NCBI GenBank assembly: GCA_963738405.1
Contig: CAVTWJ010000023.1
Coordinates: 1 to 64,000 of the forward strand
DNA length: 64,000 bases
DNA from: a candidate division FCPU426 bacterium
GTDB lineage: Bacteria; Oederibacteriota; Muellerivitia; Muellerivitales; Muellerivitaceae
Reading direction: 5' to 3'
Shown here: in pieces, positions 1,410-50,316 of the stretch
Layout: every line of letters begins with the position of its first letter
Numbering within the stretch: position 1 is the stretch's first letter
Notes under the pieces: generated by a model
What the model was told of the DNA's origin: nothing
Seen by the model: the letters and a program-made list of their open reading frames with translations, nothing else
Databases searched by the model: none
Made by a program: the position numbers and the translations under genes

Positions 1410-2072
1410 TCACGCCGCCTCCCGGAAGTAGAAGTTAAGGATTCCGCCGAGCCTTTGACGACAGACGATCTTGCCCTTTGGGCTTCCTCTGGTTAGTTCT
1501 CGGGCAGGAAAGGGAATACGGCCAAGTCCTTGGTGGGGACGCTCCCCATGGAAATGAGCGAGATATTCCTTCAAAGAGTTTCGTAACATCGGTTCTCCCA
1601 AAATAATCATCTTGGATAAGCATTCTTCCTTTACGGACCTTACCCAACGTTCCGCATAGGCATTGAGATTTGGGCTTTGGAAGGGAAGCATCAGGGTTTG
1701 GATTCCCTCGTTTTGCAAGATTCGCCGGAAAGTCGGGCAGAATTGACCGCCCCGATCGTGCAATAAAATCATCCCTTGTTTGAGGAAACCCCAGTCCGGC
1801 ATGGTTAGGTTTTTGGCTATTTGCTTCATCCAATCCCCATCAGGGTTGGTCGTGATACCGGCTATGTGGACTTTTCGGCTCGCTTGGTGGATAAGGAAAA
1901 GTACGTAATAAGTGGTCAAGCCCCAAGGTTCCCAGACCTCCCAAGTGAAAAAATCGGTTCCAACCAGGGCCTCCCAATGGGATTGGGTGAACTTGGCCCA
2001 GGTGGGTCCATTCCTGATTCTATCCGAGGCAGGTGTAAGGCCATGTCGTTTCAAAATATTGCGGATAGTGGT
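1410..2072 (-). pseudogene. DDE/rve integrase-core transposase, 5'-truncated
   Basis: DFF...LHDRGGQF...SPNLNAYAERWVRSVKEECL...RPHQGL motifs; the N-terminus is missing at the 37-bp element. Confidence 0.85.
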
Positions 2073-2109
2073 GTTGCACACCATCCTTTTTGGGAGGGCC
2101 ATGTGCAGG
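2073..2109. repeat. 37-bp imperfect hairpin junction element, copy 1
   Basis: GTTGCACACCATCCTTTTTGGGAGGGCCATGTGCAGG, identical to 3917-3953. Confidence 0.9.
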
Positions 2110-2375
2110 CTATCCGCTACCAATTCTAGGGCTTCACGGACCGAGAGTCCGGCGCGAAAAAGGGTGATCATTTCCTGGTTGGCTTGGAGAAAATCCTCGG
2201 AATTCGCCTTCTGACTTCCCCATTTGAAGAGGGAGCCCCTTTTCAGGCGCACGCCCTTCAGGAAAAGACCCTTTCCTCTCAAGGTTTCCCGAAGGTCCTC
2301 CAGGCTTGGGGCGGCGGCTTCGCCCTCCACTTCCACTCCCTGCGAGTCCAAGACTTTATAGGTGTAGATCGGCAT
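2110..2375 (-). pseudogene. PilC/GspF (type II secretion F family) N-terminal fragment
   Basis: MPIYTYKVLD..G..VEGE...LRETLRGKGL...QEMITLFRAGLSVREAL; truncated at the 37-bp element. Confidence 0.8.
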
Positions 2376-2779
2376 GCGTGCTTCCCCGCCCTTGTCCCCT
2401 TACCCTGCACTTAACCCCTAGGGTTCCACAGCTTTTCACGAAAGAAAAAAATAACCTTTCCCGACCTCAAAGCCAACCAAATTCCTTCCTGTCCGTAAGG
2501 GTGGAGGTAAAAACCATTAAAACCACATTATTTTCATATGAAAAACCATGGGAGAAATAGAAGTAACTGGACGGGCCAGGGGTCAAAGTTTTATACCCAA
2601 ATGGACTTGGCACAAACAACAGGATCGTCACGAAAGGCGGTCAAAGCTTCGAGAAAGATTTTTAAACACATGAAGCACGTGAAAATGGTCAAGGGAATAA
2701 ATGTGCCAAATCCTTTGCAACTACAAATTCTCAAAGTAAAACTAAAATATCATTCATCGATATTTTCAAAAGGTAGACT

Positions 2780-3535
2780 TTAGTTTTTACTGTTTAACCC
2801 TTTTGGATACTCCAAGAAGATATTTTCTATTCCGCCAGAATCATTCACATATTTCACATTTACTTTGTCAGATAGAAAAATTGAGCTTTTAATATTATCT
2901 TTTAGGAAATCAGCATCTTTGATATTGATTTTTTTCTTTTGGGCTATCTCTTCGGAGAAAAGTTTCCCCACTTTGAGATAGACTGAAAAATCATTAGAAT
3001 CCTGATCTAGTGAAAGATATAAATGATCTGTTAAATCAACCGCTATAAGTTGAAGATAATTGTAAAATTTATTTATTTGATTGATAGAACTAATAACAGT
3101 GTCATCACCAGCCTCATCCTGAGTATAAAAATAATACATTTCATTATTTAGCCATCCAACGTAGACATTTTTTGGAAGGTCTTCGGTTAATTCAGTTTTT
3201 TGTTTTTTGTCAGGAATATAAAGCCATAAATCCCAAATATTCAATCCATCATCGTTTCCCGGTCCATTAACCATAATTAATATACTTTTCTTATCAGGGG
3301 ATGGATATTCGTAACCGTGTAAATCTTCGTCTTTTTGTCCTTTGTTCTTTATTAGTTGAAATTTCTGACTCTGAAAATATAAGTACCCCTCTTTTACAAC
3401 GCATGAATTAAATACCTCTTTGTTATTTGCATTGGGTCCGGGATATATAATATTTTTAGAATATGCAAAAACTGGAGTAAAAATGACAATCATTAGAAAA
3501 AATAATGCTCTTTGTTTCCATGAAATGGAACTCAT
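2780..3535 (-). CDS. AT-rich exported hypothetical protein, candidate immunity protein
   Basis: Signal-peptide-like N-terminus, low GC, downstream of a hydrolase-like fragment. Confidence 0.65.
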   Translation of the reverse strand: MSSISWKQRALFFLMIVIFTPVFAYSKNIIYPGPNANNKEVFNSCVVKEGYLYFQSQKFQLIKNKGQKDEDLHGYEYPSPDKKSILIMVNGPGNDDGLNIWDLWLYIPDKKQKTELTEDLPKNVYVGWLNNEMYYFYTQDEAGDDTVISSINQINKFYNYLQLIAVDLTDHLYLSLDQDSNDFSVYLKVGKLFSEEIAQKKKINIKDADFLKDNIKSSIFLSDKVNVKYVNDSGGIENIFLEYPKGLNSKN

Positions 3536-3613
3536 TATTCAATCCACCTTTAGAAGCTAGGATTTAAAAGTTCCCTCAATTAAATGATCTGAAGAATTAA
3601 ATGTATAAAATAT

Positions 3614-3916
3614 TTAATGAGGGTCTAAATCTTTCCCGCGTTGTATCTCCGCGCCTGTAGCCTCTAAATCCTTTTTACCGTTGGCTGGGTCTTTGGCATG
3701 ATCATTAAAAAATACCGTATTTCCCAAACGTTCAGGATTAATGTATTTCCCCTGAAGAATTGACTTAATGTAACTACTTTTGTTCTTCAAAGGCCCTAAG
3801 AAGGCAACTCCTTCGAATGAGGTTCTCCCTTTTGTCGGATCCTGCCCACCCAACATGACATCGAAGACTGCTCCACGAGCTGATTTTCCTTTAGAGCCCT
3901 TATCTGAAGAATAATC
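3614..3916 (-). pseudogene. C-terminal fragment, possibly SleB/cell-wall-hydrolase-like toxin domain
   Basis: DPTKGRTSFEG...LGNTVFF resembles the Hydrolase_2 C-terminus; the ORF's ATG comes only from the 37-bp element. Confidence 0.45.
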
Positions 3917-3953
3917 GTTGCACACCATCCTTTTTGGGAGGGCCATGTGCAGG
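3917..3953. repeat. 37-bp imperfect hairpin junction element, copy 2
   Basis: Identical to 2073-2109. Confidence 0.9.
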
Positions 3954-3992
3954 AGCCTGTAATTATTGGGTTTTTCAACATTCCGCTTTTCC

Positions 3993-4020
3993 TGTCCACG
4001 ACGGGTCCCCGTCGTGGACA
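3993..4020. repeat. 28-bp palindromic site 1
   Basis: TGTCCACGACG-GGTCCC-CGTCGTGGACA. Confidence 0.95.
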
Positions 4021-4026
4021 GGACAA

Positions 4027-4857
4027 CTATACGGTATTTAATGCTTCCGTCTTATCCATTGGCAATAGCCAACGCCCTAACGGGAAAGTGATTATTACGC
4101 ATAAAGCAATCCCTGTGCCCTGATACAGAGCCGGCAAACCCGTTGGTAAGGAAAACAACCCTTTGTGGTCTATGTTTGCCAGTCCCATGGAATCAAACAA
4201 TACATGGGTCAACGACCAGCCCCATATGACATATCCACCCCTCTCAAAAACATAAACTGCGGCAAGACCAAGAAAAAAAGCTACTAAGGCTGTAGCCAAA
4301 TCGGTCAGAAGAACTTCCTGGTTAAATCCGCCCAAAAGATCGACCAAGTGGGAAATACCCCATAAGGAACTGGAGAAAACCGCCGCAATGAGAAAGGAAC
4401 TTTTTTTGCGTAACGTTTGAAAAATGAACCCGCGAAAAAATACCTCCTCGAAAAAACCAGAAGTAATAAAGATTACCAGCCACAAGGAAAACCAATTTTT
4501 AAAAGGTTCCACAGAAATGCCATGCTGAAAATAATACAGGTAAGAGAAGCCATTACCCACTGCCACTGGAATGAGTGAGATGCAACCCACCGCTAATTGC
4601 CGGGAATTCAATTTTTTAAAACCCAGGTACCAAAAGCTTTCTCGCCACGAGGTTGAATTCCACTTCATGACAAAAAAGGCCGTTACAACGACGCAAAGGA
4701 ATGGCGGGACGGCCAACAGAGCCACCACTACCCCTCCTCCAACTCCCAAGAGACCGCCCATCCATTGCAACAATAATTGACCCAGGTTTTGAATCCCGAG
4801 AACGATAACTGTCAAGAAGACCATCCAAACGTAGGCCCATTTTCCAGATAAATTCAC
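4027..4857 (-). CDS. CPBP/CAAX (Abi) family intramembrane metalloprotease
   Basis: FEEVFFRG, LWGISH and THVLFD motifs; multi-TM; GTG start after GGAGG. Confidence 0.9.
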   Translation of the reverse strand: MNLSGKWAYVWMVFLTVIVLGIQNLGQLLLQWMGGLLGVGGGVVVALLAVPPFLCVVVTAFFVMKWNSTSWRESFWYLGFKKLNSRQLAVGCISLIPVAVGNGFSYLYYFQHGISVEPFKNWFSLWLVIFITSGFFEEVFFRGFIFQTLRKKSSFLIAAVFSSSLWGISHLVDLLGGFNQEVLLTDLATALVAFFLGLAAVYVFERGGYVIWGWSLTHVLFDSMGLANIDHKGLFSLPTGLPALYQGTGIALCVIITFPLGRWLLPMDKTEALNTV

Positions 4858-4879
4858 TGACTTATTACCTCCCATTACC

Positions 4880-4907
4880 TGTCCACGACGGCTCCCCGTC
4901 GTGGACA
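4880..4907. repeat. 28-bp palindromic site 2
   Basis: TGTCCACGACG-GCTCCC-CGTCGTGGACA. Confidence 0.95.
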
Positions 4908-4929
4908 ACGCTTATTTAGAAAATCAAGA

Positions 4930-5745
4930 TTAAGGCTTAACCTTGAAATTGCTCAAAGTAAATGAATAACCGCTATCTCTTTTCCCTTCGCCAGGACTAT
5001 AAAGTGTCATTTCGATAGATTTAGGGAGAAAGTATTTCCCAGCCTTGGCTAAATTGTATTTAAAATCCGTTGGGTAATTCCCTGTTAACAAATTACTTTC
5101 GATCAGCAAGAATCCCTGCATAGTAGGTTTGAAATCTAATTTAAAAGTAACTATTTGCCCATCTGGCCCCGTTTGAGTTTGATTAATCATCTTCATATTT
5201 TCGTCAAACTCATTAGTCATGTAATTTGCCTCATCAAAATACTCAGTGATCTTTAATCCGCTTTTCAACCGAACGATTTTATAGGTGTCTTGGGTCAAAC
5301 TTTGTTTAGGGTTGAGAGGACCCCACATGTCCGCAAGCCAAAGGCTGATTCCTGATTTTAAAAATTCATTTATTTGTTTGCATATTTCTCCCACCTTTTG
5401 ACCCCATTCAGTGGAGTCTGGCGAAGGATCACCGATGGTATCCACTTTAACTTCCATTTTCGAATTGGAGTCCCATGAAATGTGGAACTTTACGCGACTT
5501 AAGGAACTGCGAAGCTTTTGGATGGGTTCATTCTCTGGAAGAACATTTGCCATCCATTTTGCTGGCTCGGCGCTTCCATCGCAGGAAAAGTTATTCAGTC
5601 CTTGATCTGCTAAACAATAATAGGCCTTGTTTACCCGTAGCAACAAAGGAAGGGCCTTGGGATTCGCCGCCCCAAAAGCAGGTATACACTGAAGTCCTTG
5701 AACAAAGAAAATCAGAAAAAAACATATTTCATTCAATTTTTTCAC
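4930..5745 (-). CDS. Exported hypothetical protein
   Basis: 271 aa ORF with signal peptide. Confidence 0.75.
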   Translation of the reverse strand: MKKLNEICFFLIFFVQGLQCIPAFGAANPKALPLLLRVNKAYYCLADQGLNNFSCDGSAEPAKWMANVLPENEPIQKLRSSLSRVKFHISWDSNSKMEVKVDTIGDPSPDSTEWGQKVGEICKQINEFLKSGISLWLADMWGPLNPKQSLTQDTYKIVRLKSGLKITEYFDEANYMTNEFDENMKMINQTQTGPDGQIVTFKLDFKPTMQGFLLIESNLLTGNYPTDFKYNLAKAGKYFLPKSIEMTLYSPGEGKRDSGYSFTLSNFKVKP

Positions 5746-5774
5746 CTTATATTCCTTCCCTCGATACGTTTACC

Positions 5775-5802
5775 TGTCCATAACGGGTCCCCATCGTGGA
5801 CA
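5775..5802. repeat. 28-bp palindromic site 3
   Basis: TGTCCATAACG-GGTCCC-CATCGTGGACA. Confidence 0.95.
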
Positions 5803-5812
5803 ACTCGCAGTC

Positions 5813-6238
5813 CTATTTACTCAAGTCTTTTTTGATTGCCTCAATCGTGGTTAATTTTTCCCAAGTAACAAGCACACCCAGCAATTTCTTTTGCCCGTTT
5901 AGGAGTTTATAAAACCTTAATTGGCAACTATAACCGCGGCCCCCTTGTTCGTAATAAATGAAAAAGTAATTTTTGGAGAATCCCGCGAAAATCAACCTAG
6001 CGAATGGCCAGGAAGGGTTTGTGACTACATCCGTTTTTTCAAAAGGTTCATTGGGGTTGGCAAATTTCTGGGTCGGCCAACAGGAAGATGGTATTTTTTC
6101 TTTCTGGCTAACGATCCGAAATGATTGGTCTAAAAAGATTTTCTTCGTTTTGCCATCAAACCCAATGTTACCGATATCTGCCGACACGCGGTCAGCCACT
6201 ATCAACAAGAGAAAAATACCAAGAGTTCTATATCTCAT
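5813..6238 (-). CDS. Exported hypothetical protein
   Basis: 141 aa, signal peptide, GAGGAGG upstream. Confidence 0.75.
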   Translation of the reverse strand: MRYRTLGIFLLLIVADRVSADIGNIGFDGKTKKIFLDQSFRIVSQKEKIPSSCWPTQKFANPNEPFEKTDVVTNPSWPFARLIFAGFSKNYFFIYYEQGGRGYSCQLRFYKLLNGQKKLLGVLVTWEKLTTIEAIKKDLSK

Positions 6239-6264
6239 ATAAATCTAAACCCCCTCCTCGAAGC

Positions 6265-6292
6265 TGTCCACGACGGGTCCCCATCGTGGACA
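6265..6292. repeat. 28-bp palindromic site 4
   Basis: TGTCCACGACG-GGTCCC-CATCGTGGACA. Confidence 0.95.
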
Positions 6293-6307
6293 AATCGTAG
6301 TTCGTTT

Positions 6308-7246
6308 TCATTGGCGCAATCTTCCCGGCGGCAACATGATAACGCGGATGGGCATTTCAGTTCTTTTTAGAAGAAATCGAGAAAGAGTAGGGGGATCGCT
6401 GGTGTAGGGGTTGTGTATGCCGGAAAAATATATTTTTATTCCTGATTTCGTGACAGAAACCTTCGTAGGGAACATTCCGTCTCCTTTTGAGGAATAATTC
6501 AAAAGAGTCATTGGATCCTTGAAGGGACATGCGACCGTTGGAAGCTTCCAATGTGGAATGGGCTGAGTTTTCCCCGTTGGAGCCTTGGGGGCGAACTCTT
6601 CCTTTTTCGCCCAAAAGGCCTCCCAGGCCCCCTGGTTTTCGAGGAAGGTACTGGCTGTGGCCGGGGCATGGCGAACGGTGTAATAAGCAACTGGATTAGG
6701 CGTGATATAGTCCTCGATACTTTCGGTTACGAGGGGCCGATCGGATTTTTTCAACAAGAAGCATGTGACCGGTGGAAATTTCGGGAAGGGACGGGGTGCT
6801 GCCCCACCGTTTCGCCCTAAAAAGGGAGATAAAACAATATGGATCCCCGCCTTCGTCCAATAAATTTCCGTTACCATTTCTTTGTGGTTTTTGACAGGGC
6901 TATACAACAAAACCATCTCTTCCTTGAAACTCACGGGCGTCCCCGGAAACCCCAACGAGTTGATGACTTTACCGGTTCCAGGTTCGCTTTCCTTTAGAAG
7001 CATCGCCCCGCCCAACTTTCTCCAAAATACCTTCCAATCCTTTTCACTTTTGATGAGGGTGATGTCCTTGGACGGGTTTTGTTGGACGACATAGGTGGCC
7101 ACCGGTTTTGGGTCCAAATCAAAACCCCCGATCCCATCCGCCGCGTGGGCAAGACCGGAACAACCCAAGGCCAAAAGGGCGCTTCCAAGAATCATTCGAC
7201 AGATAAAATCGGATGTTCTAACCAAAACGAACCCTCTATTCGACAT
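6308..7246 (-). CDS. Exported hypothetical protein with an internal domain duplication; start uncertain
   Basis: Two related halves (PKPVATYVV..WKVFWRK..FLLKKSDRP and PNPVAYYTV..WEAFWAK..FLLKRTEMP). Confidence 0.75.
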   Translation of the reverse strand: MSNRGFVLVRTSDFICRMILGSALLALGCSGLAHAADGIGGFDLDPKPVATYVVQQNPSKDITLIKSEKDWKVFWRKLGGAMLLKESEPGTGKVINSLGFPGTPVSFKEEMVLLYSPVKNHKEMVTEIYWTKAGIHIVLSPFLGRNGGAAPRPFPKFPPVTCFLLKKSDRPLVTESIEDYITPNPVAYYTVRHAPATASTFLENQGAWEAFWAKKEEFAPKAPTGKTQPIPHWKLPTVACPFKDPMTLLNYSSKGDGMFPTKVSVTKSGIKIYFSGIHNPYTSDPPTLSRFLLKRTEMPIRVIMLPPGRLRQ

Positions 7247-7254
7247 GGTACCCT

Positions 7255-7282
7255 TGTCCATTACGGCTCCCCGTCGTGGATA
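7255..7282. repeat. 28-bp palindromic site 5
   Basis: TGTCCATTACG-GCTCCC-CGTCGTGGATA. Confidence 0.93.
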
Positions 7283-7303
7283 ACCTACCGTTCACCCCAA
7301 ACC

Positions 7304-7693
7304 CTAAATCAAGTCTTTCATCGGATAAAGAGACAGCCCTGGATATTGGTAATGGCGAGTGTTGAAGGTAACTAAGGTTAAATCATTCAAAAGGGCCGTG
7401 GCGGCGATAACAGCGTCAGCCCACTCACCCCGTTGAAGTTTGCGGGATGACGAACGAAGGATTTCCGCGGCTTTTCGGGCCGTCAAAGGGAGTACCGGAA
7501 ACACCTCATAGCTCCCTAAATGTTGGCGGACCGCTTTCATTTCGGAAGGTTTAGCCCCGACTTCCACCTCCAGAACATTGAGGGCCGAGCAGGCTATGGA
7601 TTCTTCCTCAGAAAGATTTAGCAATAGTTCCACTATCTCCGTCCGCCCGCGAAGGGCCCAAATAATGACGTCGGAATCGATCAGGTAGGGCAT
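7304..7693 (-). CDS. vapC: VapC-family PIN toxin
   Basis: YLIDSDVII...EVEVG...ADAVIAATA...LVTFNTRHY. Confidence 0.92.
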   Translation of the reverse strand: MPYLIDSDVIIWALRGRTEIVELLLNLSEEESIACSALNVLEVEVGAKPSEMKAVRQHLGSYEVFPVLPLTARKAAEILRSSSRKLQRGEWADAVIAATALLNDLTLVTFNTRHYQYPGLSLYPMKDLI

Positions 7694-7702
7694 AGGATCG
7701 GG

Positions 7703-7936
7703 CTATTTCCATCCCCGGATTCGGCCCAAGTGGCGATTAATACCGGCTTGGGTTGCCATATCGGGATGGTTTTTGTTCGTCCATGTGCCGGCGGTTTGCT
7801 TAAGAACTTTTTTAAATTTCATCGACCGAAGTTGTTTCTCGACCGCCTCCGCGACAAACCGGCTTCTTTGGCGGGCGGGAATGGATCGCTTCAGCTCGGC
7901 CCCCAACGCGTCAGGAAGAACAATTAAAGTTTTCAT
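7703..7936 (-). CDS. Antitoxin (ribbon-helix-helix-like)
   Basis: Small ORF directly upstream of vapC; RSRFVAEAV motif. Confidence 0.8.
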   Translation of the reverse strand: MKTLIVLPDALGAELKRSIPARQRSRFVAEAVEKQLRSMKFKKVLKQTAGTWTNKNHPDMATQAGINRHLGRIRGWK

Positions 7937-8187
7937 AGGAACCCCCCCCTTTTCTGTATATACGAGTGTATATCCATCAGCCCTTTTTCGCAATTCCCCT
8001 AGAAGCGCTCCCCACCTTTCATTCACCCCAATGCTATTTATGGCCTTTGGGTCATTACAGCGCAGATACGCAAATGCCTATAAGCATTTGCACCGCCAAG
8101 ACTTACACCCTAACTGGAAGTTAGGGAACAGTGCCCCAATGTTTTGTACGACATTGGGGTCAACAAGGCTTGTTCCGTAACTTGTAG

Positions 8188-10269
8188 TTACGGAACAGTT
8201 ACCTTTTCCACCCGGGTCACCTGCGGGCCCTGCACACCCTCGTGCACCCAAACCTTGATGGAGATCGGCTGGGTTGAAACCACTTCCCCCGGATAATTCA
8301 GGTCGCTTTTAGTGGTCACAACACCCTCTATCAAAAACTGGTCCGAAGCGCCGTCGGTGCCTACCCATTGGGGCGGCTGGGTGGGTTTGAAGTAAGCCAC
8401 CCATTTCTTGTCTTGGATTTCCTGAATCTTTGCTGGCGGGTAATTTTCGTAGAAGAACTGAACCTGGTAACCATCGGCGATTTCGGCTTTCAGGTTCCCC
8501 AGCCAGGTCGGGATATCGTGGTAGCTGGGGCCGTAAACATCGTTGGCGAAGTTCTTCACGAATAATTGTTTCCGCTGTAATCCGGCTTGATCCCGGGGAG
8601 AAAGGGTGGAAGCCGCAGGAGCCTCGATAGGCGTAGGTTTCTCAGTGGCCATGGCCTGGGCAGTATGCTTCGAGATTTTCCTGACAGGCCGTTTAGGCTC
8701 TACTTTTTTGATAACTTCCGAAAGGATTGGCACCGCCGTAGTTTGCGGAGCCTGTTCGACCTTTGGCGCTACTTGGGCGGTTTTATTCCAAGTAGGGATA
8801 TAACCCTTGAGTCGGGCAATCAGTGCGCCCGGGTGGAAAAGGTAAGTCCAAATAAGCCAAAGCACTAATAAGAACGCGGCCACTCGAAGGAACCAGATCA
8901 CCACCGGCCTAAAGACCTTGGCCAAAAGCCTGCCAATGGTATTGAACTCGGATTTAATAACTTTCTTCCCTTCCTCGTAAACCCATTTCAAGATGTGGCA
9001 AAAGACCTTCCATAGGGTAACAATGCACTTCCAAAAGATTTGCCCCAAGGCCTGCCAGGGATTCTTGGCCAATTTGCCAAAAATAGCCTTAACCCCTGCG
9101 CCCTCAAAACCTTCCCAGACCAGTTTGAGGTCCGCTTTAAGTCCCTGCCCACCTTTGACCGCCACGACGGGTGCCGGTTTAAGCGCAACCAGCCCAGGGA
9201 CTATCCCCGCTAGGGCAGTAGCGTACCTGGGGTCATGGGGCTGGCCTTGAAGCCGCTTGGCCTCCTCCACCGTGCCCAGGGCGCCAAAAAGGGCCAGGGC
9301 CGCCTCGTCTTTGCCCAGGGTCAGTACCGCCTTATAACCCTTGGGGGTTTGGCGCACCTGGATCGTGCGGGGCAGGTCTTGCCATAACTTGGCCAGGGGG
9401 TCGTTAGGGTCGAATCTCTGGTTTTTGACCCCCTTCTTGACCTCCGTTTTACCGTCTTGGGGAAAGCTCTCAGGGCTGTTCCCTTTCTTGATCCATTCCA
9501 CCAGCTTCTTCACAAGGTTCAAGGTTAGTTGGCGGTCATACACCACCCGCAAAGCCGCTTCGATTTTTCCTTGATCATCCGCCGAACCAGTCGCTAGATC
9601 CGCTAAAACCAGGACCATCCCCTGGGTTATCTCATAATCGTCGGATTTTATGAATTGATCATAAATGAGGCCTTGACTCGTTTTATTCAATAATTTCAAT
9701 AGTTTTAGAGCCTTACTGATGGTTGTTTGGTCTTTCGCAAGTGCATCGGCGGCCTGTTGCTGATTCATTCCGCTCTTAATCAGGCTATCGGCGGCTTTGG
9801 CCCAAGCCAGCCAATTCATGTCTTTGCGTACATTATCCAAGATGGCGGCTTGCTGGGCCTCTTGGGGGGTCATATGCCGGGCTATGGCTTCCAGGGCGGT
9901 TAGGGGCACCAGTGGGGCGGCGGCGGTACGGAGAAAGCCCCCTACCAGCCGGTAGGGCTTATCCGTGTGGGCCTGGGCCCTTTCTTCAGGTGTGCGGTAA
10001 CGAAGGAGGATGGGGGTCTCTTGCCCGGATTGTTTGAGGGACCGGACCATATCGTCGATGTCTTTTTGGGGGTAGGGCCCCCGGGGGTTGTCTTCGGGAA
10101 CCACCAGGATCTGGCCCAGGGGAACAATTAGGATTTCCCCCTTCTTGTTCGATTCCTTCGGTGAATCGGCCGCCGGGGCCGAAGCCTCATGCTGCGGCCC
10201 GCGACTTGGCTGTGCCGATTCCATAGAGGAATCGGCGTTACTAGTTGATTCAGGCATAGGGCCCTCCAA
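8188..10269 (-). CDS. ParB-like protein (ParB N-terminal domain + HTH) fused to a TM segment and an extracytoplasmic domain
   Basis: NPR, SLKQSGQETPILL, LVGGFLRTAA (GxxRxxA), DNVRKDM; HTH QQQAADALAKDQTTISKAL; TM VAAFLLVLWLIWTYLF. Confidence 0.8.
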   Translation of the reverse strand: MEGPMPESTSNADSSMESAQPSRGPQHEASAPAADSPKESNKKGEILIVPLGQILVVPEDNPRGPYPQKDIDDMVRSLKQSGQETPILLRYRTPEERAQAHTDKPYRLVGGFLRTAAAPLVPLTALEAIARHMTPQEAQQAAILDNVRKDMNWLAWAKAADSLIKSGMNQQQAADALAKDQTTISKALKLLKLLNKTSQGLIYDQFIKSDDYEITQGMVLVLADLATGSADDQGKIEAALRVVYDRQLTLNLVKKLVEWIKKGNSPESFPQDGKTEVKKGVKNQRFDPNDPLAKLWQDLPRTIQVRQTPKGYKAVLTLGKDEAALALFGALGTVEEAKRLQGQPHDPRYATALAGIVPGLVALKPAPVVAVKGGQGLKADLKLVWEGFEGAGVKAIFGKLAKNPWQALGQIFWKCIVTLWKVFCHILKWVYEEGKKVIKSEFNTIGRLLAKVFRPVVIWFLRVAAFLLVLWLIWTYLFHPGALIARLKGYIPTWNKTAQVAPKVEQAPQTTAVPILSEVIKKVEPKRPVRKISKHTAQAMATEKPTPIEAPAASTLSPRDQAGLQRKQLFVKNFANDVYGPSYHDIPTWLGNLKAEIADGYQVQFFYENYPPAKIQEIQDKKWVAYFKPTQPPQWVGTDGASDQFLIEGVVTTKSDLNYPGEVVSTQPISIKVWVHEGVQGPQVTRVEKVTVP

Positions 10270-39106: not shown

Positions 39107-40632
39107 TTCAGGTCCTGCGACCGGTCGCTAGGTATGTTGTTCTTGGCCAGGATATCCGCCGTGGCTTGTTTCGCCTTGGAAGCGTCCAGCACGATTTTGG
39201 TCCCCACTTCCACCGGAGCGTCTATTTCAATAACGTGGCGGCCGCCCTGGGGTTTCTCAAAGGCCTGGATCAAATCTTTCATTTCCGTGATGGGAACACC
39301 GTTGACCTTTTGAACGACCAGGTTCGTGTAATGCTCGTCATAGCCCTTGTTGATCTCATGGGAAAGGATATGGCTGATGATGACGACCTGTTTTTGGTTT
39401 TCGGAGGGAAGGCCCTCGAAATAGAGGGGCATGAAGCCTGAAGGCGCGGACTTGGCGATTTGCAGATAATTCATGGTGAGCGGGGTGAATACCAGCCCTC
39501 CAAAAATGAAATAGGTCGGATCGGTGTCGTATTTCACCAGGGGAACCAGGCGGGCGTCATCCTTCAAAGTGACCGTGATGGTCATTGTTTTCTTATCACG
39601 CAGAATCTTAAGGGGCAGCTTATCCCCAATCCGGTGGAGGCAGAGTGGATATTGAAAATTGAGTCGTTCTCCCTTGCGGAAATAAAGGGTGCCGTCATTG
39701 GCGATGGGGAATTTGTCGATTGAAAGAAGAATGTCATTTTCATGAATCAGTCCCCAAGCGGAAGACCCATATACAACTTTAGACGCCAATACTCCTGTTT
39801 GGCTCGCCTTCATTCCGAAATAATCCCGAAGAGAGTCGTTCTCCATGGATTCGGTGTAGAGTCCCAAAGTGGGGACGGGACTATAGCTTCCTTTTTTGAT
39901 TTGTCCCAGGAACCTTTGGATCAGTTGCACGGGCACGATATAGCCGGTATTTTGCGCCACTACCGCGTTGTAGCCTTGAAAGGCGACACCGACTAGTTTC
40001 TTATGGCTGAAAACCGGTCCCCCGCTGTTGCCGGGGTTGATTGCCGCGTTGGTTTGAATGCCCAAGAGATTGCGCATGGAATGGGAATAGGGGATGACCT
40101 CGATGCGGGAGACTTCCCCTTCGGTGATGGAGAGTTCTTCCCCGCCCACCGGATATCCGTAAACCGACACATTGTCTTTTAAAGAAGGCAAGGTCCCGAA
40201 TTTGACGGGTTTGGTTCCCTTGAAAAATTTCGGGTCATCTACTTTAAGAATGGCCAAGTCGCAATCGTGGGCCACGAATTCTTTTTTGGCCGTATATTTT
40301 TTGGCGTCCCCATCCTTAAGCACCTGGATGAAGATTTCATTGGAAACCACATGGGCGTTCGTCAGGATCAGGTTGCCGGATATGACACAACCGCTTCCGC
40401 TGATTTCTTCCTCGGGCCCCACTCTCCAGGGTTCGTAGTAGTTGGGGTTCTGGATGGTCGTGAAAATCTTGACCACGGACTTCCGCAAGGGGTCGTCGGT
40501 AGCTTTGGCAATGGACGGAAGCCAAAAACAAATTGCAAAGATGGCAGCCCAATATCGCAAATGCTTTTCAAGAGTTTGCGGATAGGCCAAGGGATTTACG
40601 ATTGCCTTCAAAAACATCTCCAGGAAAAACAA
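39103..40632 (-). CDS. HtrA/Deg family serine protease with PDZ domains
   Basis: LTNAHVV, DLAIL, AINPGNSGGP. Confidence 0.93.
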   Translation of the reverse strand: MFFLEMFLKAIVNPLAYPQTLEKHLRYWAAIFAICFWLPSIAKATDDPLRKSVVKIFTTIQNPNYYEPWRVGPEEEISGSGCVISGNLILTNAHVVSNEIFIQVLKDGDAKKYTAKKEFVAHDCDLAILKVDDPKFFKGTKPVKFGTLPSLKDNVSVYGYPVGGEELSITEGEVSRIEVIPYSHSMRNLLGIQTNAAINPGNSGGPVFSHKKLVGVAFQGYNAVVAQNTGYIVPVQLIQRFLGQIKKGSYSPVPTLGLYTESMENDSLRDYFGMKASQTGVLASKVVYGSSAWGLIHENDILLSIDKFPIANDGTLYFRKGERLNFQYPLCLHRIGDKLPLKILRDKKTMTITVTLKDDARLVPLVKYDTDPTYFIFGGLVFTPLTMNYLQIAKSAPSGFMPLYFEGLPSENQKQVVIISHILSHEINKGYDEHYTNLVVQKVNGVPITEMKDLIQAFEKPQGGRHVIEIDAPVEVGTKIVLDASKAKQATADILAKNNIPSDRSQDLK

Positions 40633-40874
40633 ATGTTTGATAGATCAACGATTTGGATTGCGAAGGATGTTTAGTGTAGCATGCGCCTTGTTAAACGATG
40701 GTCCAAATTCAATCAAACAAATACCGAAAGATTAGGCACTTTTGAAGTATTGGGATAGGTTTGTTCAGTAATTTTAAAAGCGGGGGAATGATTTTAATCC
40801 TGCGCTCACATCCAATGGATCTATCCCAGTGGATGTGAGCGTTCTAGAAGACGAACAATCAAACAATACTAATG

Positions 40875-41333
40875 CTACTCAAACCCATAGAAGGAATAGG
40901 GAATATTTTTTGAGTCGTGCACGGTGCTGTTGACATACACACTGCCATTCGTGCTGTCATACAGCCAGCCGGTGCTAGAAGCAGTTGGCGCTCTGCCCTG
41001 TGTTGTCATGGTCACCAAGTTTCCAACTGGAGAAGTACAGCCGGGAACGAAAGCCCCGGTTACCTTCACAGCCGAAATGTTGTCCATGTATTTGCTGAAA
41101 GAATAGGTGGACAAGGCGTTCAGCGTGCTCGGCCAAATTCCCTGTTGATCCCCGTAATAAATAGAAGCAGCTGATTTGAGAGAACCCAAGGTGCCCTTGG
41201 TGGCGCCTTCCCTGGACTTCTCAAGCATCTGTGCGAATTTGGGGATGGCAATCGCAGCCAAAATTCCGATGATAGCCACAACGATCATCAGTTCAATGAG
41301 AGTAAACCCTTTTGCTTTTAAACGAATCATCAA
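40875..41333 (-). CDS. Type IV pilin / prepilin
   Basis: KGFTLIELMIVVAIIGILAAIAIP. Confidence 0.93.
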   Translation of the reverse strand: MMIRLKAKGFTLIELMIVVAIIGILAAIAIPKFAQMLEKSREGATKGTLGSLKSAASIYYGDQQGIWPSTLNALSTYSFSKYMDNISAVKVTGAFVPGCTSPVGNLVTMTTQGRAPTASSTGWLYDSTNGSVYVNSTVHDSKNIPYSFYGFE

Positions 41334-41518
41334 CCCCTCCTAGAAACTTTTATGCCCAGTCGTTCTTTGACCCAGAAAAGGACAATATTTGGTATTGTAT
41401 AAGTCTTAATAAAACATTTATACATAATTGATACAGCAATTATCTTGTTTTCAAACAATTGAGATTCAAAAAAGTCACGATGCTCTTGAAAGAGAATATT
41501 CGATCTTTTTGGAAAAAA

Positions 41519-41536
41519 TGGCGGGGTTGACGGGGC
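41519..41536 (-). repeat. Second, 18-bp copy of the tRNA-Asp 3' end
   Basis: TGGCGGGGTTGACGGGGC identical to 41701-41718. Confidence 0.85.
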
Positions 41537-41700
41537 AATCGAACCGCTCCACTCGTAGGGGAAATTCCCCCTACGTTACCCCATTAAACAGCCGGGAAAC
41601 TCCCGTTTCCCGCACCCTTCCCATGGGTTCGAGCCCCAAGAACTCAACCAAAAACAAAAATGCCCACAAACAAATTTATGTTTATGGGCATTTATTTATA

Positions 41701-41745
41701 TGGCGGGGTTGACGGGGCTCGAACCCGCGACCTCCTGCGTGACAG
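41701..41745 (-). other. tRNA-Asp(GTC) 3' half; probable att boundary of an island extending rightwards
   Basis: Minus strand CTGTCACGCAGGAGGTCGCGGGTTCGAGCCCCGTCAACCCCGCCA; D-arm and 5' acceptor strand absent. Confidence 0.85.
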
Positions 41746-41874
41746 CGGGATGATCGCGATTCGTCACCACTCTAAACCCTTTTAATTACAGCAAAAAATT
41801 GACCTGCCCCCCAAAAACTGGTCCATTTGAAAAGTCACACTTTTCTATAATGGGCCCAGCCAAAGGGGGCATTT

Positions 41875-42153
41875 ATGCCAAGGAAGAAACACAGCGCCGA
41901 ACAGATTATATCCCTGTTGCGCCAAGCCGATGTCGAGCAGTCTAAGGGTCGTTCTGTAGAAGAAATCTGCCGTGAGCTTCAAATCACCCCGCACACCTAT
42001 TACCGCTGGAGAAAAGAATACGGCGGCCTCAAGTTGGACCAGGCCAAACGCCTCAAAGAACTGGAGAAAGAGAATTCCCAGTTAAAGCGCGTGGTGGCTG
42101 ATCTTTCCCTGGATAACCGCATCCTGAAAGACCTGGCCCGGGGAAACTCCTAA
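41875..42153 (+). CDS. IS3 transposase OrfA
   Basis: HTH and RLKELEKEN leucine zipper; GGGGAAAC slippery site before the stop. Confidence 0.92.
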   Translation: MPRKKHSAEQIISLLRQADVEQSKGRSVEEICRELQITPHTYYRWRKEYGGLKLDQAKRLKELEKENSQLKRVVADLSLDNRILKDLARGNS

Positions 42154-42176
42154 GCCCGGCGAAACGCCGAAAAGCC

Positions 42177-43019
42177 GTGAGGGAAGCCTGTGAAAACCAC
42201 AGGGTTTCCCAAAGGCGAGTCTGTCGGGCCCTCAACCATTCCAGAAGTACCCAACGCTATGTACCACGAATTAGGCCGGATGAACCGCCCTTAGTGGGAC
42301 GAACCATTGAGATGGCTTGCCAGTATGGGCGATATGGCTATCGGCGTGTTTGGGGGCTCTTGAGGAACGAAGGGTGGCGGGTAAACCACAAACGGGTGGA
42401 AAGAATCTGGAGGGAAGCAGGGCTGAAAGTGCCGAAAAAACAGCCGAAACGAAGGAGGCTGTGGTTCAACGACGGGTCATGTATTCGCCTGAGAGCTGAG
42501 CGGCCAAACCATGTTTGGAGTTACGACTTCGTGTCGGACGTGACGAGCGACAAAAGGCCGATGAGGTTTTTGACGGTGATCGACGAGTTCACCCACGAAA
42601 GCCTGGCTCTGCCGGTTCAAAGAAAGTTTACGGCGGACGATGTTCAGGCTGTTCTGGCGGATCTGTTTATCGAGCGAGGAGTACCAGAGTACATTCGTTC
42701 GGACAACGGCCCGGAGTTCACGGCCGAGAGGGTGAAGGATTGGCTGCCGAAAGTGGGCGTGAAAACTTTGTTTATTGAACCTGGAAGCCCATGGGAGAAT
42801 GGCTACAACGAAAGCTTCAATGGGAAATTCAGGGATGAACTACTGGACGGCGAGATATTCGACACGGTTTGGGAAGCACGCGTGATCGCCGAGAAGTGGA
42901 GGAAGGAGTACAATACGAAACGTCCGCACAGTTCACTGGGGTATCGGCCACCCGCCCCAGAGGCGTACAGCATGGAATCAACCAGTCAATTCAGGCCCAT
43001 GCCGACGTCAAGAAACTGA
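42177..43019 (+). CDS. IS3 transposase OrfB (DDE)
   Basis: WSYDF, SDNGPEF, ESFNGKFRDE. Confidence 0.95.
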   Translation: MREACENHRVSQRRVCRALNHSRSTQRYVPRIRPDEPPLVGRTIEMACQYGRYGYRRVWGLLRNEGWRVNHKRVERIWREAGLKVPKKQPKRRRLWFNDGSCIRLRAERPNHVWSYDFVSDVTSDKRPMRFLTVIDEFTHESLALPVQRKFTADDVQAVLADLFIERGVPEYIRSDNGPEFTAERVKDWLPKVGVKTLFIEPGSPWENGYNESFNGKFRDELLDGEIFDTVWEARVIAEKWRKEYNTKRPHSSLGYRPPAPEAYSMESTSQFRPMPTSRN

Positions 43020-43066
43020 GTCTATAGTGTGAGATATGGTGTGGCACTAAAACCGGGGGCAGGTCA

Positions 43067-43848
43067 GAACGATGGTGCCGATTTCTCTCCTCTAAAACAG
43101 CGATTAAAACATTTGTATCTAAATAGAATTCGCTATCTTTAAAAACTTCTTCGCTGAGAATGTAACCTTCAGGATCTATACCAACTGCTTTAGTAAGATA
43201 AAAATTTTGTACCGTGTTCCACTTTATCAAATCGAAATCTGGATCTGGCGAGGTCTTTAAAAATTCAATAAATCCTGTTTTTAATACCTCCGGATTAATT
43301 GATTTGCTTTTATATTTTATAACTAGTGCTGTTATGACTTGTAATACAAAATGACTTGATACAAATGCATCAATAGATTTTTCTTTTTTAAGTGCCAAAA
43401 CATATTCATCTGCAATTTTCGAAAATAAATTTGCTAAAAATTCTAAAAACGGTTCGAAGTAAGCATCAATTGCTTTGGCTTCCGTTAATCTAAATATTCT
43501 TTTAATTACTTTTTTATACCTATCATCAGACTCTTTGCGATTAAATTCGATTTGCTCATATGTCTCTTTAAATAAACTATATTTCCCATCCTCAATATGC
43601 AAATCATTCAACTCAACAAGCTTTGTCAAAACCTCCTCTAATAAAGCAACAGATAAAACAACACCACATTCTTTATGAATTTTTCCAACAATACGATGTA
43701 CATCCAATAATCTCGGATATTCTAAATACAGTGATTGTTTAATTAGCCTCTCAAGAGTTTTTTGCCGTAATAAGCCAATTGTTGGGACGAAACGTATAAC
43801 AGTAGAAAGTAATATCATTCGTTTTCGATATATGTCTATTTCATTCAT
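43067..43848 (-). pseudogene. AT-rich gene truncated by the IS at the start of a PIN-like domain
   Basis: FYLDTNVLI motif just before the IS end; AAGGAG RBS. Confidence 0.7.
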
Positions 43849-44131
43849 TCGTTTCTCCTTCAAATTCCTGAAAAATAGAAATTTCAGTATCAACAATCGC
43901 TTTAGGATATTCCATTCCTTACTTATTGACACATTTCTTTTCGATTTTTTATTCAACCCGGAGGGTTGTAGGAGGAAGAAAGTTAACTAGCTATAAAGGA
44001 ATGACACACTCATATACTTAATAAAATAAAAGATCGAAGCCCTCGTAGCTAACCACTCAAAAGATAGTTCAGGGTAAAAACCATAAAGAACACAAACCTC
44101 TTTTCCAACAATACCGTTCCCTTGCTTCCCC

Positions 44132-44339
44132 TCATCGCACCTGGGCCTTCGAGTCCGCAAAGACCTCCGCTTCCTCCGGGCTCATACCGGCTTCCATGGC
44201 CTTTTGCAGAATGGCCTGTCGGCGGGCTTCCTTCTTGGGTAAGGAACCCACGAAAGTCAGTGCCGAATTGTTCCTGTAATGAACCTTGGTCACCATCCGC
44301 TGGTGGAATCCACGGACATAGATGGATTCATAAAGACCC
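44132..44339 (-). pseudogene. 5'-truncated paralogue of 51300-51539
   Basis: LYESIYVRGFHQRMVTKVHYRNNSALTFVGSLPKKEARRQAILQKAMEAGMSPEEAEVFADSKAQVR. Confidence 0.85.
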
Positions 44340-44509
44340 TGCCTCCCCCCCTACTCCTCTAGTCCATAACCTACGGTCTGCCTTGCCTGCTCCCTCCCAT
44401 TACCCCCACCTCCCACTTAACTTTCAGCTTAAAGCTGTATTATCGTAACGAAAGGTATCTCCTCAACGTCTAACCATTCATCCCCTTCTATAAAAGGAAT
44501 TGGTATTTC

Positions 44510-45109
44510 ATGGAACGTGTATGTGTTTTCATTGATGGAAGCAATTTCTACTTCGCCTTAAAGCGCAACAACCGTGCAACCAGGGTGGATTATTACCAGT
44601 TAAGCCTTGCCCTGGCCGGACCCGACCGGCAACTGATCCGCACCTATTACTACAATGTCGCCTACGACAAAACCCAATTTCCCGACAAAGCCAAAACGCA
44701 AATGTCCTTCCTGGACTCCCTGGATCGGACCCCCTATTTGGAACTGCGTTTAGGCCGCTTGGTTTCCACATTCGATGGTAACGTTCAGGAAAGGGGCATG
44801 GACGTTTTAATTGCTTCCGATATGGTCTATTACGCCGCCCGCAAGGCCTGTGATACGGCTATTGTGGTAACAGAGGACGCTGTTTATTCCTCGGTCTTGG
44901 AGGAGGTAAAGGAATTGGGCCTGCACGTTGAAATCGCCACCTTCCAGGACAACCAAAGCCGGGAGCTTATTCGAGCATCTGACCTCCGAATTCCCCTGGA
45001 TACAGTCTTGGATCGATTCTCAACCAAAATATTCCCATCCGACGTTGATGACAATCGCGGTGGCACGGCAGATCGGGTTGGAAAGGTTCTAAAATCGTTC
45101 ATAAAGTAA
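44510..45109 (+). CDS. NYN-domain (LabA/DUF88) protein
   Basis: VFIDGSNF, QERGMDVLIASDM. Confidence 0.9.
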   Translation: MERVCVFIDGSNFYFALKRNNRATRVDYYQLSLALAGPDRQLIRTYYYNVAYDKTQFPDKAKTQMSFLDSLDRTPYLELRLGRLVSTFDGNVQERGMDVLIASDMVYYAARKACDTAIVVTEDAVYSSVLEEVKELGLHVEIATFQDNQSRELIRASDLRIPLDTVLDRFSTKIFPSDVDDNRGGTADRVGKVLKSFIK

Positions 45110-45125
45110 ATTGGGATGTGTGTTT

Positions 45126-45359
45126 ATGACAAAGGAATCTCTTCCCCCAGGTAGCCATGTAATCCATACCAAGACGCAGGTTATCGGTACGGTCATCAAA
45201 GAAATCGACGACTTTGTTTGCGTCAGGATCGCCAAGGACAAACCTCCGGTGGTTTGGAAAAGGGATGAACTGACTATCTGGAACGGAATGGAAGAAATTC
45301 AAAAGAGGCTCAAGCAAGGCGGGTGTATTAGGGATATCTTTCTGAAAATGACGGATTAA
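45126..45359 (+). CDS. Small hypothetical protein
   Basis: ORF directly after the NYN gene. Confidence 0.45.
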   Translation: MTKESLPPGSHVIHTKTQVIGTVIKEIDDFVCVRIAKDKPPVVWKRDELTIWNGMEEIQKRLKQGGCIRDIFLKMTD

Positions 45360-45396
45360 GTTTCACTTACAACTTGCTTATTTTTAACCTTTACCG

Positions 45397-47757: not shown

Positions 47758-47918
47758 TAACCAATCTTATGAATTTTGGCGCACGGTTTTTTCAACTTTT
47801 AATCTCACTCACGGTTTCCATTCTCCTTTTTACTTTTTGGAGTTTTGATGGCTTGAAGCCAACAAAGTCAGAAGAACGAATTTCGTTTTAATATCCTTTT
47901 TCTTATTCATTTCATTCA

Positions 47919-48398
47919 TCACCTTGGCTCAAATAGCTTTCTCAATTTTTCAATGTAATCCACCGGCAGATGATGTTCCACCGCTCCTGTTAAAATGACG
48001 TTTAGATAGTCTCTGCTGGGCCTATAGATTCCCTTTTTTATAACCTCGTAGGTAATAACATCGGATACCGATTTCTCACCCACCAGAATTTCAACCCGAA
48101 ATTGCCTATAAACACCCGAGGGGACCCCCTCTTTCATGTCAATGTTATCTAAAGACCTTTTGTCCGTTTCAAATAAAACTCCCCAGACCGTCTCATTTAT
48201 TCTTCTCACAATATCGGCGACCCCTCCGTTGCGGCGGTTTGATTTGTGAGTAAACGCCAATTGAAAATCTTTCAAGATGGCAACTTTAGGGTTGTTGAGG
48301 CTGATTTTGGAATGGTTTTCAACACACCATTTTCCCAGGTCTTCCGAATTCATATTTGAGCCATACGCGAAATAAAGGAAGGAATTGGATTGGTTCAT
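47919..48398 (-). CDS. Gamma-glutamylcyclotransferase family
   Basis: YFAYGSNM, VWGVLF, DMKEG. Confidence 0.88.
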   Translation of the reverse strand: MNQSNSFLYFAYGSNMNSEDLGKWCVENHSKISLNNPKVAILKDFQLAFTHKSNRRNGGVADIVRRINETVWGVLFETDKRSLDNIDMKEGVPSGVYRQFRVEILVGEKSVSDVITYEVIKKGIYRPSRDYLNVILTGAVEHHLPVDYIEKLRKLFEPR

Positions 48399-48531
48399 TT
48401 TGTTTATTCCGGGATTAATTTTTACGGATTTTACCCCTTCTCCAGAATGGTGTGGACGGAAGAAAATCCTCCGGCTTTTGAAGAATGAATGATCCACTCA
48501 TAAAAGGGGAGGTTGAAGCCCACGGACCGGG

Positions 48532-50140: not shown

Positions 50141-50316
50141 GGGAAATAACTCCTTATGTCAGAATTATATGTCCTTTTCTGACATCTATCAAGGAGCCAT
50201 CTTTTGGGTTCCCGGAGGAAGTAATGGGTATGGGAGGGGGGGAAATCCGGTTTCCACGGATTAAATATTCGGTTCTCATTTATTTCTTCCGCCGTCAAAC
50301 CAGCCGGTACCCGTTT

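Follow-up and report, generated by a model that had tools for sequence, protein, structure and literature searches.

The 64,000-nt stretch analysed here, hereafter the window (positions 1 to 64,000, forward strand, of contig CAVTWJ010000023.1, assembly GCA_963738405.1, from a candidate division FCPU426 bacterium), holds a row of small genes punctuated by a 28-bp palindrome. We propose, with moderate confidence, that recombination takes place at this palindrome, that small mobile gene cassettes are bounded by it and that the enzyme acts in trans. An earlier note, made from the letters of the window alone, had described five co-oriented copies at 3993, 4880, 5775, 6265 and 7255. A pattern search of the 64-kb window confirmed all five, with 0, 0, 3, 1 and 3 mismatches to the arm pattern, respectively, and 100 dinucleotide-preserving shuffles of the window gave no site at all. 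The 11-nt arm occurs eight times in the window against 0.49 expected. On neither strand of the 64 kb was a sixth copy detected, at up to eight mismatches over the whole site or up to three over its first 18 nt.

Relatives of the site were sought in a genome collection with a degenerate 28-mer holding 20 fixed bases, which gave at least 60 loci. Those listed come from at least nine metagenome-assembled genomes and merge into at least 40 regions (350,627 bp). The 40 listed regions carry at least 125 copies of the site at up to five mismatches, and assembly CAVYRH01 alone contributes at least 19 regions on 14 contigs. The window itself is not among the listed records; its best DNA matches in them are 80-84% identical to it. 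When the listed copies are taken together with the five of the window, 129 of 130 are co-oriented within their own region. A single full site is present in 11 of the 40 listed regions, and the remainder have 2 to 10, at gene-like spacing. The 28-mer had no match in 72,556 plasmids and none in a phage collection.

All site-to-site intervals and flanks of the listed regions were compared all-against-all, and interval statistics were calculated for 77 intervals, with introns and insertion sequences (IS) left out. The intervals have a median length of 812 bp (range 262-2427) and a mean guanine-plus-cytosine (GC) content of 44.3%, compared to 52.6% in 45 stretches outside arrays (Mann-Whitney p = 1e-12). 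Their content is rich in toxin-antitoxin pairs (PIN/VapB, RelE/MqsA, ParE/Phd, BrnT/BrnA, Gp49/HI1420, TacA/GNAT), acetyltransferases and family-less proteins, and next to several arrays there are genes that integrative elements typically carry (ArdC, RadC or ParB-like). At two loci (L032:5678-7050 and L025:8786-9409; L numbers label the listed loci), a cas1 gene (TIGR00287, 251 bits) with an overlapping 111-aa open reading frame (ORF) lies cassette-like directly behind a site.

Turnover of these intervals was seen within one assembly and between assemblies. In the case of CAVYRH01, an 863-bp interval occurs in four places with 100% identity that stops at the sites; it has three different left neighbours and two different right neighbours. 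Behind a unit labelled F12, one contig has the 863-bp unit and another a 766-bp unit, and a pair made of the 766-bp and a 963-bp unit has different neighbours on both sides on two contigs. The locus ahead of the riboflavin genes has one unit on one contig and four on a second, with identical DNA to the right and diverged or different DNA to the left. Between assemblies, a 633-bp unit with a family-less 121-aa ORF is common to four at 80-83% identity; its alignment runs from just past one site to the next, and the DNA on the outside is unrelated. A 691-type unit precedes this 633-bp unit in CAWJKT010000009 and comes after it in CAZGKT010000055. The vapBC proteins of the window are 88-92% identical to those of units in CAVYRH010000012 and CAVYRH010000005, and the three vapBC units align only from about 45 nt ahead of the vapB start to the downstream site. 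The unit in CAVYRH010000012 sits between two sites. The one in CAVYRH010000005 is also site-bounded on both sides; there an intron has entered behind the left site, and the site behind vapBC is split by a 64-bp insertion after its eighth base (L049, about 6560-6680). Relatives of the other cassette proteins of the window were absent from the fetched loci.

The earlier note had reasoned that sites scattered without turnover, or homologous genes whose boundaries lie off the sites, would speak against a cassette system. The sites are indeed scattered over many loci, yet cassettes turn over, neighbour order differs between contigs and between genomes, and homologous units end exactly at sites. The comparison of sequences shows that the units are modular, co-oriented and low in GC, with their borders at the sites.

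Two further observations concern the surroundings of the arrays. In two assemblies an array ends directly ahead of hflX (L028:6417-7876 and L004:5382-6811); the downstream flank is homologous and the upstream cassettes differ. Five contigs end within 45 nt of a site (the end of L040 and the starts of L022, L038, L005 and L054), as might be expected if the assembly graph branches where strains differ in the adjacent unit; the loci were selected by their sites, which makes this count no clean statistic.

Polymorphic bases inside the site follow the unit that lies downstream of it. Position 19 is A ahead of all four 863-bp units, whatever lies upstream, and G behind F12 when the 766-bp unit comes next. 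The right arm behind the 963-bp unit is either the consensus or CCCTAAGTGAACA, depending on the downstream unit. Because these changes track the downstream unit, the right arm belongs to that unit, and the exchange lies to the 5' side of position 19. For the other (5') limit of the exchange, no informative polymorphism was found in these regions.

In the mechanism that we propose, the functional site would span about 30 bp, namely a pyrimidine, 13 bp, GA, 13 bp and a purine. A cassette would consist of the right arm of one site, a short leader, one gene or toxin-antitoxin pair, and the left arm and centre of the next site, with the exchange point in the centre of the site or in its left half. 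Whole cassettes would be deleted, inserted or exchanged when two co-oriented sites recombine, so that the same cassette would come to lie at many sites in a genome and in other orders in other genomes.

Anatomy of the site and its place behind genes

On the gene strand, the consensus of the site is TGTCCACGACGGG-GA-CCCGTCGTGGACA. The earlier note had described two 11-bp arms around a 6-bp overlap, the geometry of tyrosine-recombinase sites. Instead, the arms pair over 12-13 bp and the sole asymmetric bases are the central two (GA), which gives a symmetry of 13-2-13, not 11-6-11, and no support for the tyrosine-recombinase geometry. By analogy with sites as they are generally known, 13-2-13 resembles a serine-recombinase crossover site, and this, or a loop nick by a rolling-circle-type enzyme, would fit at least equally well; another enzyme that might suit is a tyrosine recombinase whose site has one weak arm, as dif does.

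Conservation was described on 124 copies in distinct contexts, among the matches listed. Positions 1-18 and 23-28 are nearly fixed, and the central GA is kept in 121 of the copies. Positions 19-22 are variable, with GTCG most frequent and ATCG, TTCG, GGAT, GGAG and GGAA recurrent, and position 16 is G rather than C in two of the five copies in the window. The symmetry extends one base further out, with a pyrimidine (T or C) at position -1 in 93% of copies and a purine (A or G) at position 29 in 85%; covariation between these two positions was not detected (Fisher p = 0.66). The 28-mer is found identical in assemblies whose common units are just about 80% identical.

Perfect copies fold strongly as single strands (-19.3 kcal/mol). 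Nevertheless, in the 12 stem pairs of 77 distinct variants, both sides changed in three pairs, where shuffled columns gave 3.7 on average, and the covariation score was 0.085 against 0.086, without any excess of compensatory change. Two copies in the window barely fold as DNA, the one at 5775 with -4.3 kcal/mol, which 66 of 200 shuffles equal, and the one at 7255 with -6.2 kcal/mol. A half-site search in gene orientation gave 22 extra matches to the left arm and four to the right arm. Some of the 22 are sites split by introns or copies with small indels and about ten, on our own reading, have no recognisable right arm; about two of the four right-arm matches are not explained by introns or small indels. 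The lack of excess compensatory change and this half-site pattern indicate that the sequence is kept rather than the pairing, and that the core consists of the left arm and the centre. Taken together, whole-unit exchange, an identical 28-mer across units that are about 80% identical, symmetry without covariation and a near-invariant asymmetric centre argue for recognition by a protein on DNA. Such recognition favours a recombination site for mobile cassettes.

The copies are closely tied to genes. In 119 of the 130 copies the site lies 2-148 nt past the end of a co-directional ORF of 60 aa or more, without any overlap. For ORFs of at least 100 aa the count is 112 of 130; the control in opposite orientation gave 29 of 130, and of 2000 randomly drawn positions 509 qualified. 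All listed copies lie outside long ORFs, the minimum gap to the upstream stop being 2 nt, and in 117 of 130 a forward ORF starts within 200 nt downstream.

Placement of this kind could also be that of an element acting on RNA, i.e. an intercistronic hairpin at which transcripts are ended, processed or protected, or which binds a regulator via its loop GGA, and which travels as an expression signal of the genes. It would agree with the sense orientation of the sites to the genes, the tight distance to the upstream stop and the conserved loop (G13, G14, A15), whose GGA might be read as CsrA-like. Moreover, the last hexamer of the site, TGGACA, is -35-like and is used by one promoter-like match. 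The gene strand has no U-tract, however, positions 29-35 being purine- and A-rich, and an intrinsic terminator was rejected, as none of the five window sites was called on the minus strand and the one at 4880 was called solely on the non-coding plus strand. The stretch 2500-8400 of the window has no Rfam match even at E = 5, and at gathering thresholds a search of the window and eight loci gave group II intron matches only, all in the loci. With no covariation, with some copies lacking a recognisable right arm, and with unit borders and rearrangement points at the site left unexplained, we consider an RNA-level role improbable.

Symmetric half-sites that include the flanking pyrimidine and purine, without covariation, would suit a plain binding site for a DNA-binding protein, a ParB-type or operator-type dimer without any role in recombination. 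A ParB-like gene does lie upstream of the array in the window and upstream of a site in CAVYRH010000010 and CAVYRH010000022, where the ParB-like genes are 30% identical to that of the window. Such genes are near just three of 41 regions, though, and two of these are copies of one locus. As a plain binding site also leaves the strict orientation with the genes, the better-kept left arm and the rearrangement borders without explanation, we give it very little credence.

Introns, insertion sequences and candidate enzymes

The site is a target for other mobile elements. Copies of a first group II intron family, intron A, lie in sense orientation with their start 2 nt behind the site in at least 11 places, among them L017 (for example 5029-5830), L018, L045, L048, L049, L031, L053 and L026; in the loci searched, there are Rfam matches at eight of the places. 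Its ORF-less copy is about 800 bp long, with an 801-bp form that is 100% identical at a minimum of four places, and longer copies encode reverse transcriptases of 392-455 aa (392-436 aa in the loci just named) with Pfam matches to RVT_1 and GIIM only. A second group II family interrupts the site itself, after position 11 and before position 12, in four places: L013, L028 (7927 to about 9895), L048 (from 8254; RF02003, 121 bits) and L012 (from 4839). It encodes a 455-aa reverse transcriptase and homes to the conserved left arm. Finally, an IS110-family element of about 1.38 kb (an 'RNA-guided transposase' in NCBIfam) abuts the outer edge of the site in either orientation (L033:5029-6407; the same element in L025; inverted in L028, upstream of 5001).

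Homing of this kind is reported for several other sites. In excerpts of the respective papers, class C introns enter terminator hairpins and, in fewer cases, attC sites (PMC4424553), IS110 elements insert into repetitive extragenic palindromic (REP) sequences (PMC12288879), and one IS family targets plasmid dif (pdif) and dif sites (PMC10132070). Site-specific parasites home to the present site just as such elements do to attC, dif and REP sites. The introns and the IS110 element mark the site as an abundant conserved target; they do not separate the rival readings.

The most serious of these rivals is a REP-like extragenic element, spread by its own transposase from elsewhere, for example a REP-associated tyrosine transposase (RAYT), and lying behind genes, where it perhaps stabilises the 3' ends of transcripts. 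The shuffling would then be a by-product of general or illegitimate recombination between copies. The high intergenic copy number at many loci (at least 125 copies), the position behind co-directional ORFs and the strong fold of perfect copies all agree with it. So do the IS110-family element at the site edge, from a family known for targeting REP sequences (excerpts of PMC12288879), and intron A directly behind the site, which is how class C introns behave at terminator-like hairpins (excerpts of PMC4424553).

Several observations do not agree. The copies are clustered in low-GC islands, as in the window, where five lie within 3.3 kb and none in the remaining 60 kb. REP elements keep their stem by compensatory change, often occur as inverted pairs and carry a GTAG-type head. 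Judged against these generally known features rather than against a model, the present copies differ, being single, co-oriented and without such a head; their stem shows no compensatory upkeep, and two of the five in the window hardly fold. Furthermore, units common to several assemblies have borders at sites on both sides. The REP-like alternative, which the earlier note had kept open, is thus weakened, and we consider it unlikely, though clearly less so than the other two.

Candidate enzymes were searched with Pfam in 439 ORFs around the sites (about 10 kb each) and the 74 ORFs of the window, 513 in total and a small part of each genome. Neither an integron integrase nor a Y1/RAYT transposase was found among them. 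In the window there are no recombinases besides IS3-type rve transposases, as the earlier note had stated. NCBIfam, applied to 17 proteins, gave no further enzyme candidate. Clustering of all ORFs revealed no family recurrent at arrays except intron reverse transcriptases, IS110, toxin-antitoxin genes and spurious antisense intron ORFs. The sole tyrosine recombinase among the 439 ORFs, in L024, is encoded at a contig end, some 700 nt past a site, and scores 43.1 bits on TIGR02249, whose cut-off is 265.

One serine recombinase deserved closer attention. A gene for a Ccr-like large serine recombinase (L056:3498-4325) ends 15 nt from a site, and a decayed counterpart in another assembly (L006:4470-5034), whose N-terminus is decayed, reads into a site. 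Both are truncated right after the recombinase domain and are followed by the 15-bp palindrome GTCAGTAnTACTGAC and then the site. Because of the truncation and the decay in L006, this recombinase was rejected as the active enzyme and taken as a relic, and no intact serine recombinase linked to the arrays was found among the 513 ORFs. In our proposal the enzyme is not encoded beside the arrays and would have to act in trans. We infer a dedicated site-specific enzyme rather than general recombination; circular intermediates, and an enzyme of one of the classes named above, would go with it.

Two other mechanisms were tried and rejected. A CRISPR-like process (clustered regularly interspaced short palindromic repeats), in which Cas1 would insert gene-sized DNA at a repeat, and abutted IS ends both fail on the right arm that moves with the downstream unit and on the solo full sites.

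A number of points weigh against a site of cassette recombination. To begin with, there is no candidate enzyme among the 513 ORFs; apart from the tyrosine recombinase of L024 and the truncated serine recombinase, the proteins of this type are those of IS and introns. The within-assembly cases, a large share of the evidence for shuffling, are from a single metagenome bin with short contigs, which may be a mix of strains. Strain variants of one locus would still mean turnover at sites, and in our judgement a 28-bp repeat is too short to mislead an assembler. General machinery that recombines 28-bp repeats could yield the same maps; RecA recombination in E. coli has a minimum for efficiency of about 25 bp. 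The two arms are unequally conserved, with 27 variants of the left arm (consensus in 67 of 124 copies) and 48 of the right arm (consensus in 45 of 124). The excess of left-arm half-sites, some of them without a right arm, is likewise not predicted by a symmetric dimer or core site. Single full sites make up more than a quarter of the listed regions, and some of them adjoin ordinary genes (hflX, ackA-xfp, mutL-miaA). Finally, the tie of the copies to co-directional ORFs (112 of 130) would also fit an element of gene 3' ends.

The array in the window

The array genes all lie on the minus strand, so that the description of the sites in the earlier note as lying after stops and before starts holds only when read on that strand. 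In transcription order the array consists of vapB, vapC, a site, a 312-aa ORF, a site, a 141-aa ORF, a site, a 271-aa ORF, a site, an Rce1/CAAX-type protease, a site and a 110-aa ORF. This gene content, with vapBC at the head, the CAAX protease, three exported-type family-less ORFs and one co-directional gene per interval, is as previously described. The gaps from stop to site are 21, 15, 10, 22 and 6 nt in the same order, in line with the 6-22 bp given before. The gaps from site to next start are 8, 26, 29, about 4 (ATG at 4875) and 46 nt; the earlier note had given roughly 8-29 bp for four of the sites.

The first unit (7304..7936) is formed by the antitoxin gene vapB (7703-7936) and by vapC (7304-7693), whose product has a PIN domain and belongs to the VapC families. 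In the window this unit has a site on its 3' side only. The 250-nt gap ahead of vapB, where another site would be expected, holds two further inverted repeats, and nothing convincing was found there as a degenerate site. Behind vapC, site 5 (7255..7282) lies 21 nt past the stop and 8 nt ahead of the next ATG; it is degenerate, with four mismatches to the gene-strand consensus, and has the weak fold given above.

Next comes the 312-aa gene (6308..7246), which has a lipoprotein-like N-terminus (lipobox read by eye) and no family match. Its stop is followed after 15 nt by site 4 (6265..6292, one mismatch), which is 26 nt ahead of the next start. Here TGGACA, one base off the -35 consensus, is paired on the minus strand (6242-6270) with a -10-like TAGATT at a spacing of 17 nt. 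The genes for the 141-aa (5813..6238) and 271-aa (4930..5745) proteins both have signal-peptide-like N-termini and no family match. Between them lies site 3 (5775..5802), degenerate with three mismatches and with a hairpin at the shuffled level. Site 2 (4880..4907), 22 nt past the stop of the 271-aa ORF, has one mismatch, the G at position 16. It is followed by the gene for the Rce1-like (CAAX/CPBP) intramembrane protease (4027..4875; PF02517, E = 8.8e-14) and, 6 nt past its stop, by site 1 (3993..4020), which matches the consensus perfectly and closes the series of sites. Beyond it, the 110-aa ORF (3614..3946) has no site behind it and may be either the distal flank or a terminal unit. All these features are on the minus strand.

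The array lies in a low-GC island, with 40-42% over 2000-6000 against about 52% elsewhere in the window. Its downstream flank holds an IS3-type (rve) transposase gene (1410..2375, minus strand) and the end of an RHS gene. This RHS-repeat gene is on the plus strand; within 1-1314, its 3' end precedes a 96-aa ORF, presumably as polymorphic toxin tips usually precede their immunity genes. Directly upstream of the array is the 693-aa ParB-like gene (8188..10269, minus strand), counted as flank, its membership in the system not being established; a hairpin with a 13-bp stem (8170-8198) overlaps its stop.

A second IS3-family element lies at 41875-43019, besides the one at 1410-2375, and both CAVYRH010000002 and CAVYRH010000003 have copies with about 80% identity to the one over 41800-42965. 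A second low-GC stretch (40000-50200, 42-47%) has genes for an NYN-domain protein, a UvrD-like helicase, an AbiEii toxin with a DUF6088 partner ORF and an AIG2-like protein. This stretch has the look of a defence island and contains no copy of the site.

Comparison with known systems and significance

To our knowledge, storage and reshuffling of single genes in the form of cassettes is well understood in integrons alone, with dif modules a plasmid-bound second case. The present arrays share with integron arrays and with clusters of attC sites lacking integrases (CALINs) the hallmark of co-oriented, mostly single-gene cassettes of about 0.3-2.4 kb, each ending in a site just past the stop and arranged in variable order. 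They also share the many toxin-antitoxin pairs and family-less genes, a GC content below that of the genome, and a cassette 5' end that bears the distal part of the preceding site. attC sites are imperfect inverted repeats of 57-141 bp with R''/L''/L'/R' boxes, GTTRRRY core and ends, and extrahelical bases. The site described here differs, since it has 28 bp, is in consensus a perfect palindrome and ends in TGGACA; it is not an attC site, as the earlier note had already said. Integrons have an intI tyrosine-recombinase gene beside the array, together with attI and a cassette promoter. Neither an integron integrase nor attI nor a single platform was seen in the regions analysed; instead, one assembly has at least 19 site regions spread over 14 contigs. 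Group II introns home to the site in both systems (excerpts of PMC4424553), but the introns at the sites here are in sense orientation.

The second comparison is with dif modules, whose recombination is catalysed by chromosomal XerC/XerD. At dif and pdif sites one arm is better conserved than the other, as in the sites here. The present sites differ in having the same 13-bp sequence in both arms, two asymmetric central bases and direct orientation (129 of the 130 copies), and in standing on chromosomal contigs of uncultured bacteria, with no match to the 28-mer in the plasmid collection. The earlier statement that they are not dif sites is borne out by these features. In excerpts of PMC13141974, the pdif sites of Acinetobacter plasmids have distinct XerC and XerD arms with a 6-bp spacer, and modules lie between inversely oriented sites, C and D alternating. 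The same source describes 28-bp sites and small shuffled modules that include toxin-antitoxin pairs, which are features shared with the arrays here. A recombinase that acts in trans from elsewhere in the genome (proposed for the present system) and the use of the sites as IS targets are also in common (excerpts of PMC13141974 and PMC10132070).

With REP/RAYT systems the site has in common that it is a short, high-copy extragenic palindrome behind genes and a target of the IS110 family (excerpts of PMC12288879). It is unlike them in that the copies are single, gene-oriented and arrayed and bound moving units, with a stem lacking compensatory upkeep and no RAYT among the ORFs searched. Serine-recombinase crossover sites (hix/gix, res site I), as generally known, likewise have arms of about 12-13 bp and a 2-bp asymmetric centre that sets polarity. 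Staphylococcal cassette chromosome (SCC) elements with Ccr stack in tandem behind a gene with direct repeats between them, and a Ccr-like fragment abuts the site in two assemblies; this fragment is, however, truncated in both cases, and an intact serine recombinase is not linked to the arrays searched. CRISPR arrays have short repeats with spacers of about 30-40 bp, whereas the spacing here is 262-2427 bp and the intervals hold genes.

In the literature, the 26-nt core of the site was absent on either strand from the searchable texts, and 12-mers of it occurred only in papers with unrelated titles. A keyword search for non-integron palindromic cassette systems returned integron papers only. 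Judged from sequence features, the arrays would be new among site-bounded gene cassettes, as they behave like integron or dif modules yet fail defining features of both.

The cassette capture and excision system with a recombinase in trans that the earlier note had suggested stands as far as site-bounded, co-oriented single-gene units with turnover are concerned; the dedicated enzyme is a conjecture of ours. For the uncultured clade as a whole we go one step further, and more tentatively than in the proposal of a recombination site itself. Its genomes might carry out an integron-independent, genome-wide exchange of cassettes, in which each genome has dozens of mini-arrays, all with the same palindromic site of some 30 bp (13-2-13, GA centre). 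One trans-acting enzyme, a serine recombinase or a loop-nicking one, would move one-gene cassettes between any two sites, and the site would by now have become a homing target of two intron families and IS110.

The candidate system has a site of a mere 28 bp and numerous arrays on each chromosome, and no integrase is linked to them. The sequence of the site provides a direct handle on the enzyme, through the comparison of genomes with and without the site, and a very small recombination site with a new enzyme would, if the proposal is true, be a possible tool. In uncultured soil bacteria, the system would mean a pool of small accessory genes under exchange, with toxin-antitoxin pairs, exported proteins and defence-type genes among them. 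It would be a third cassette system, and cassette-style genome plasticity would then have evolved more than once.

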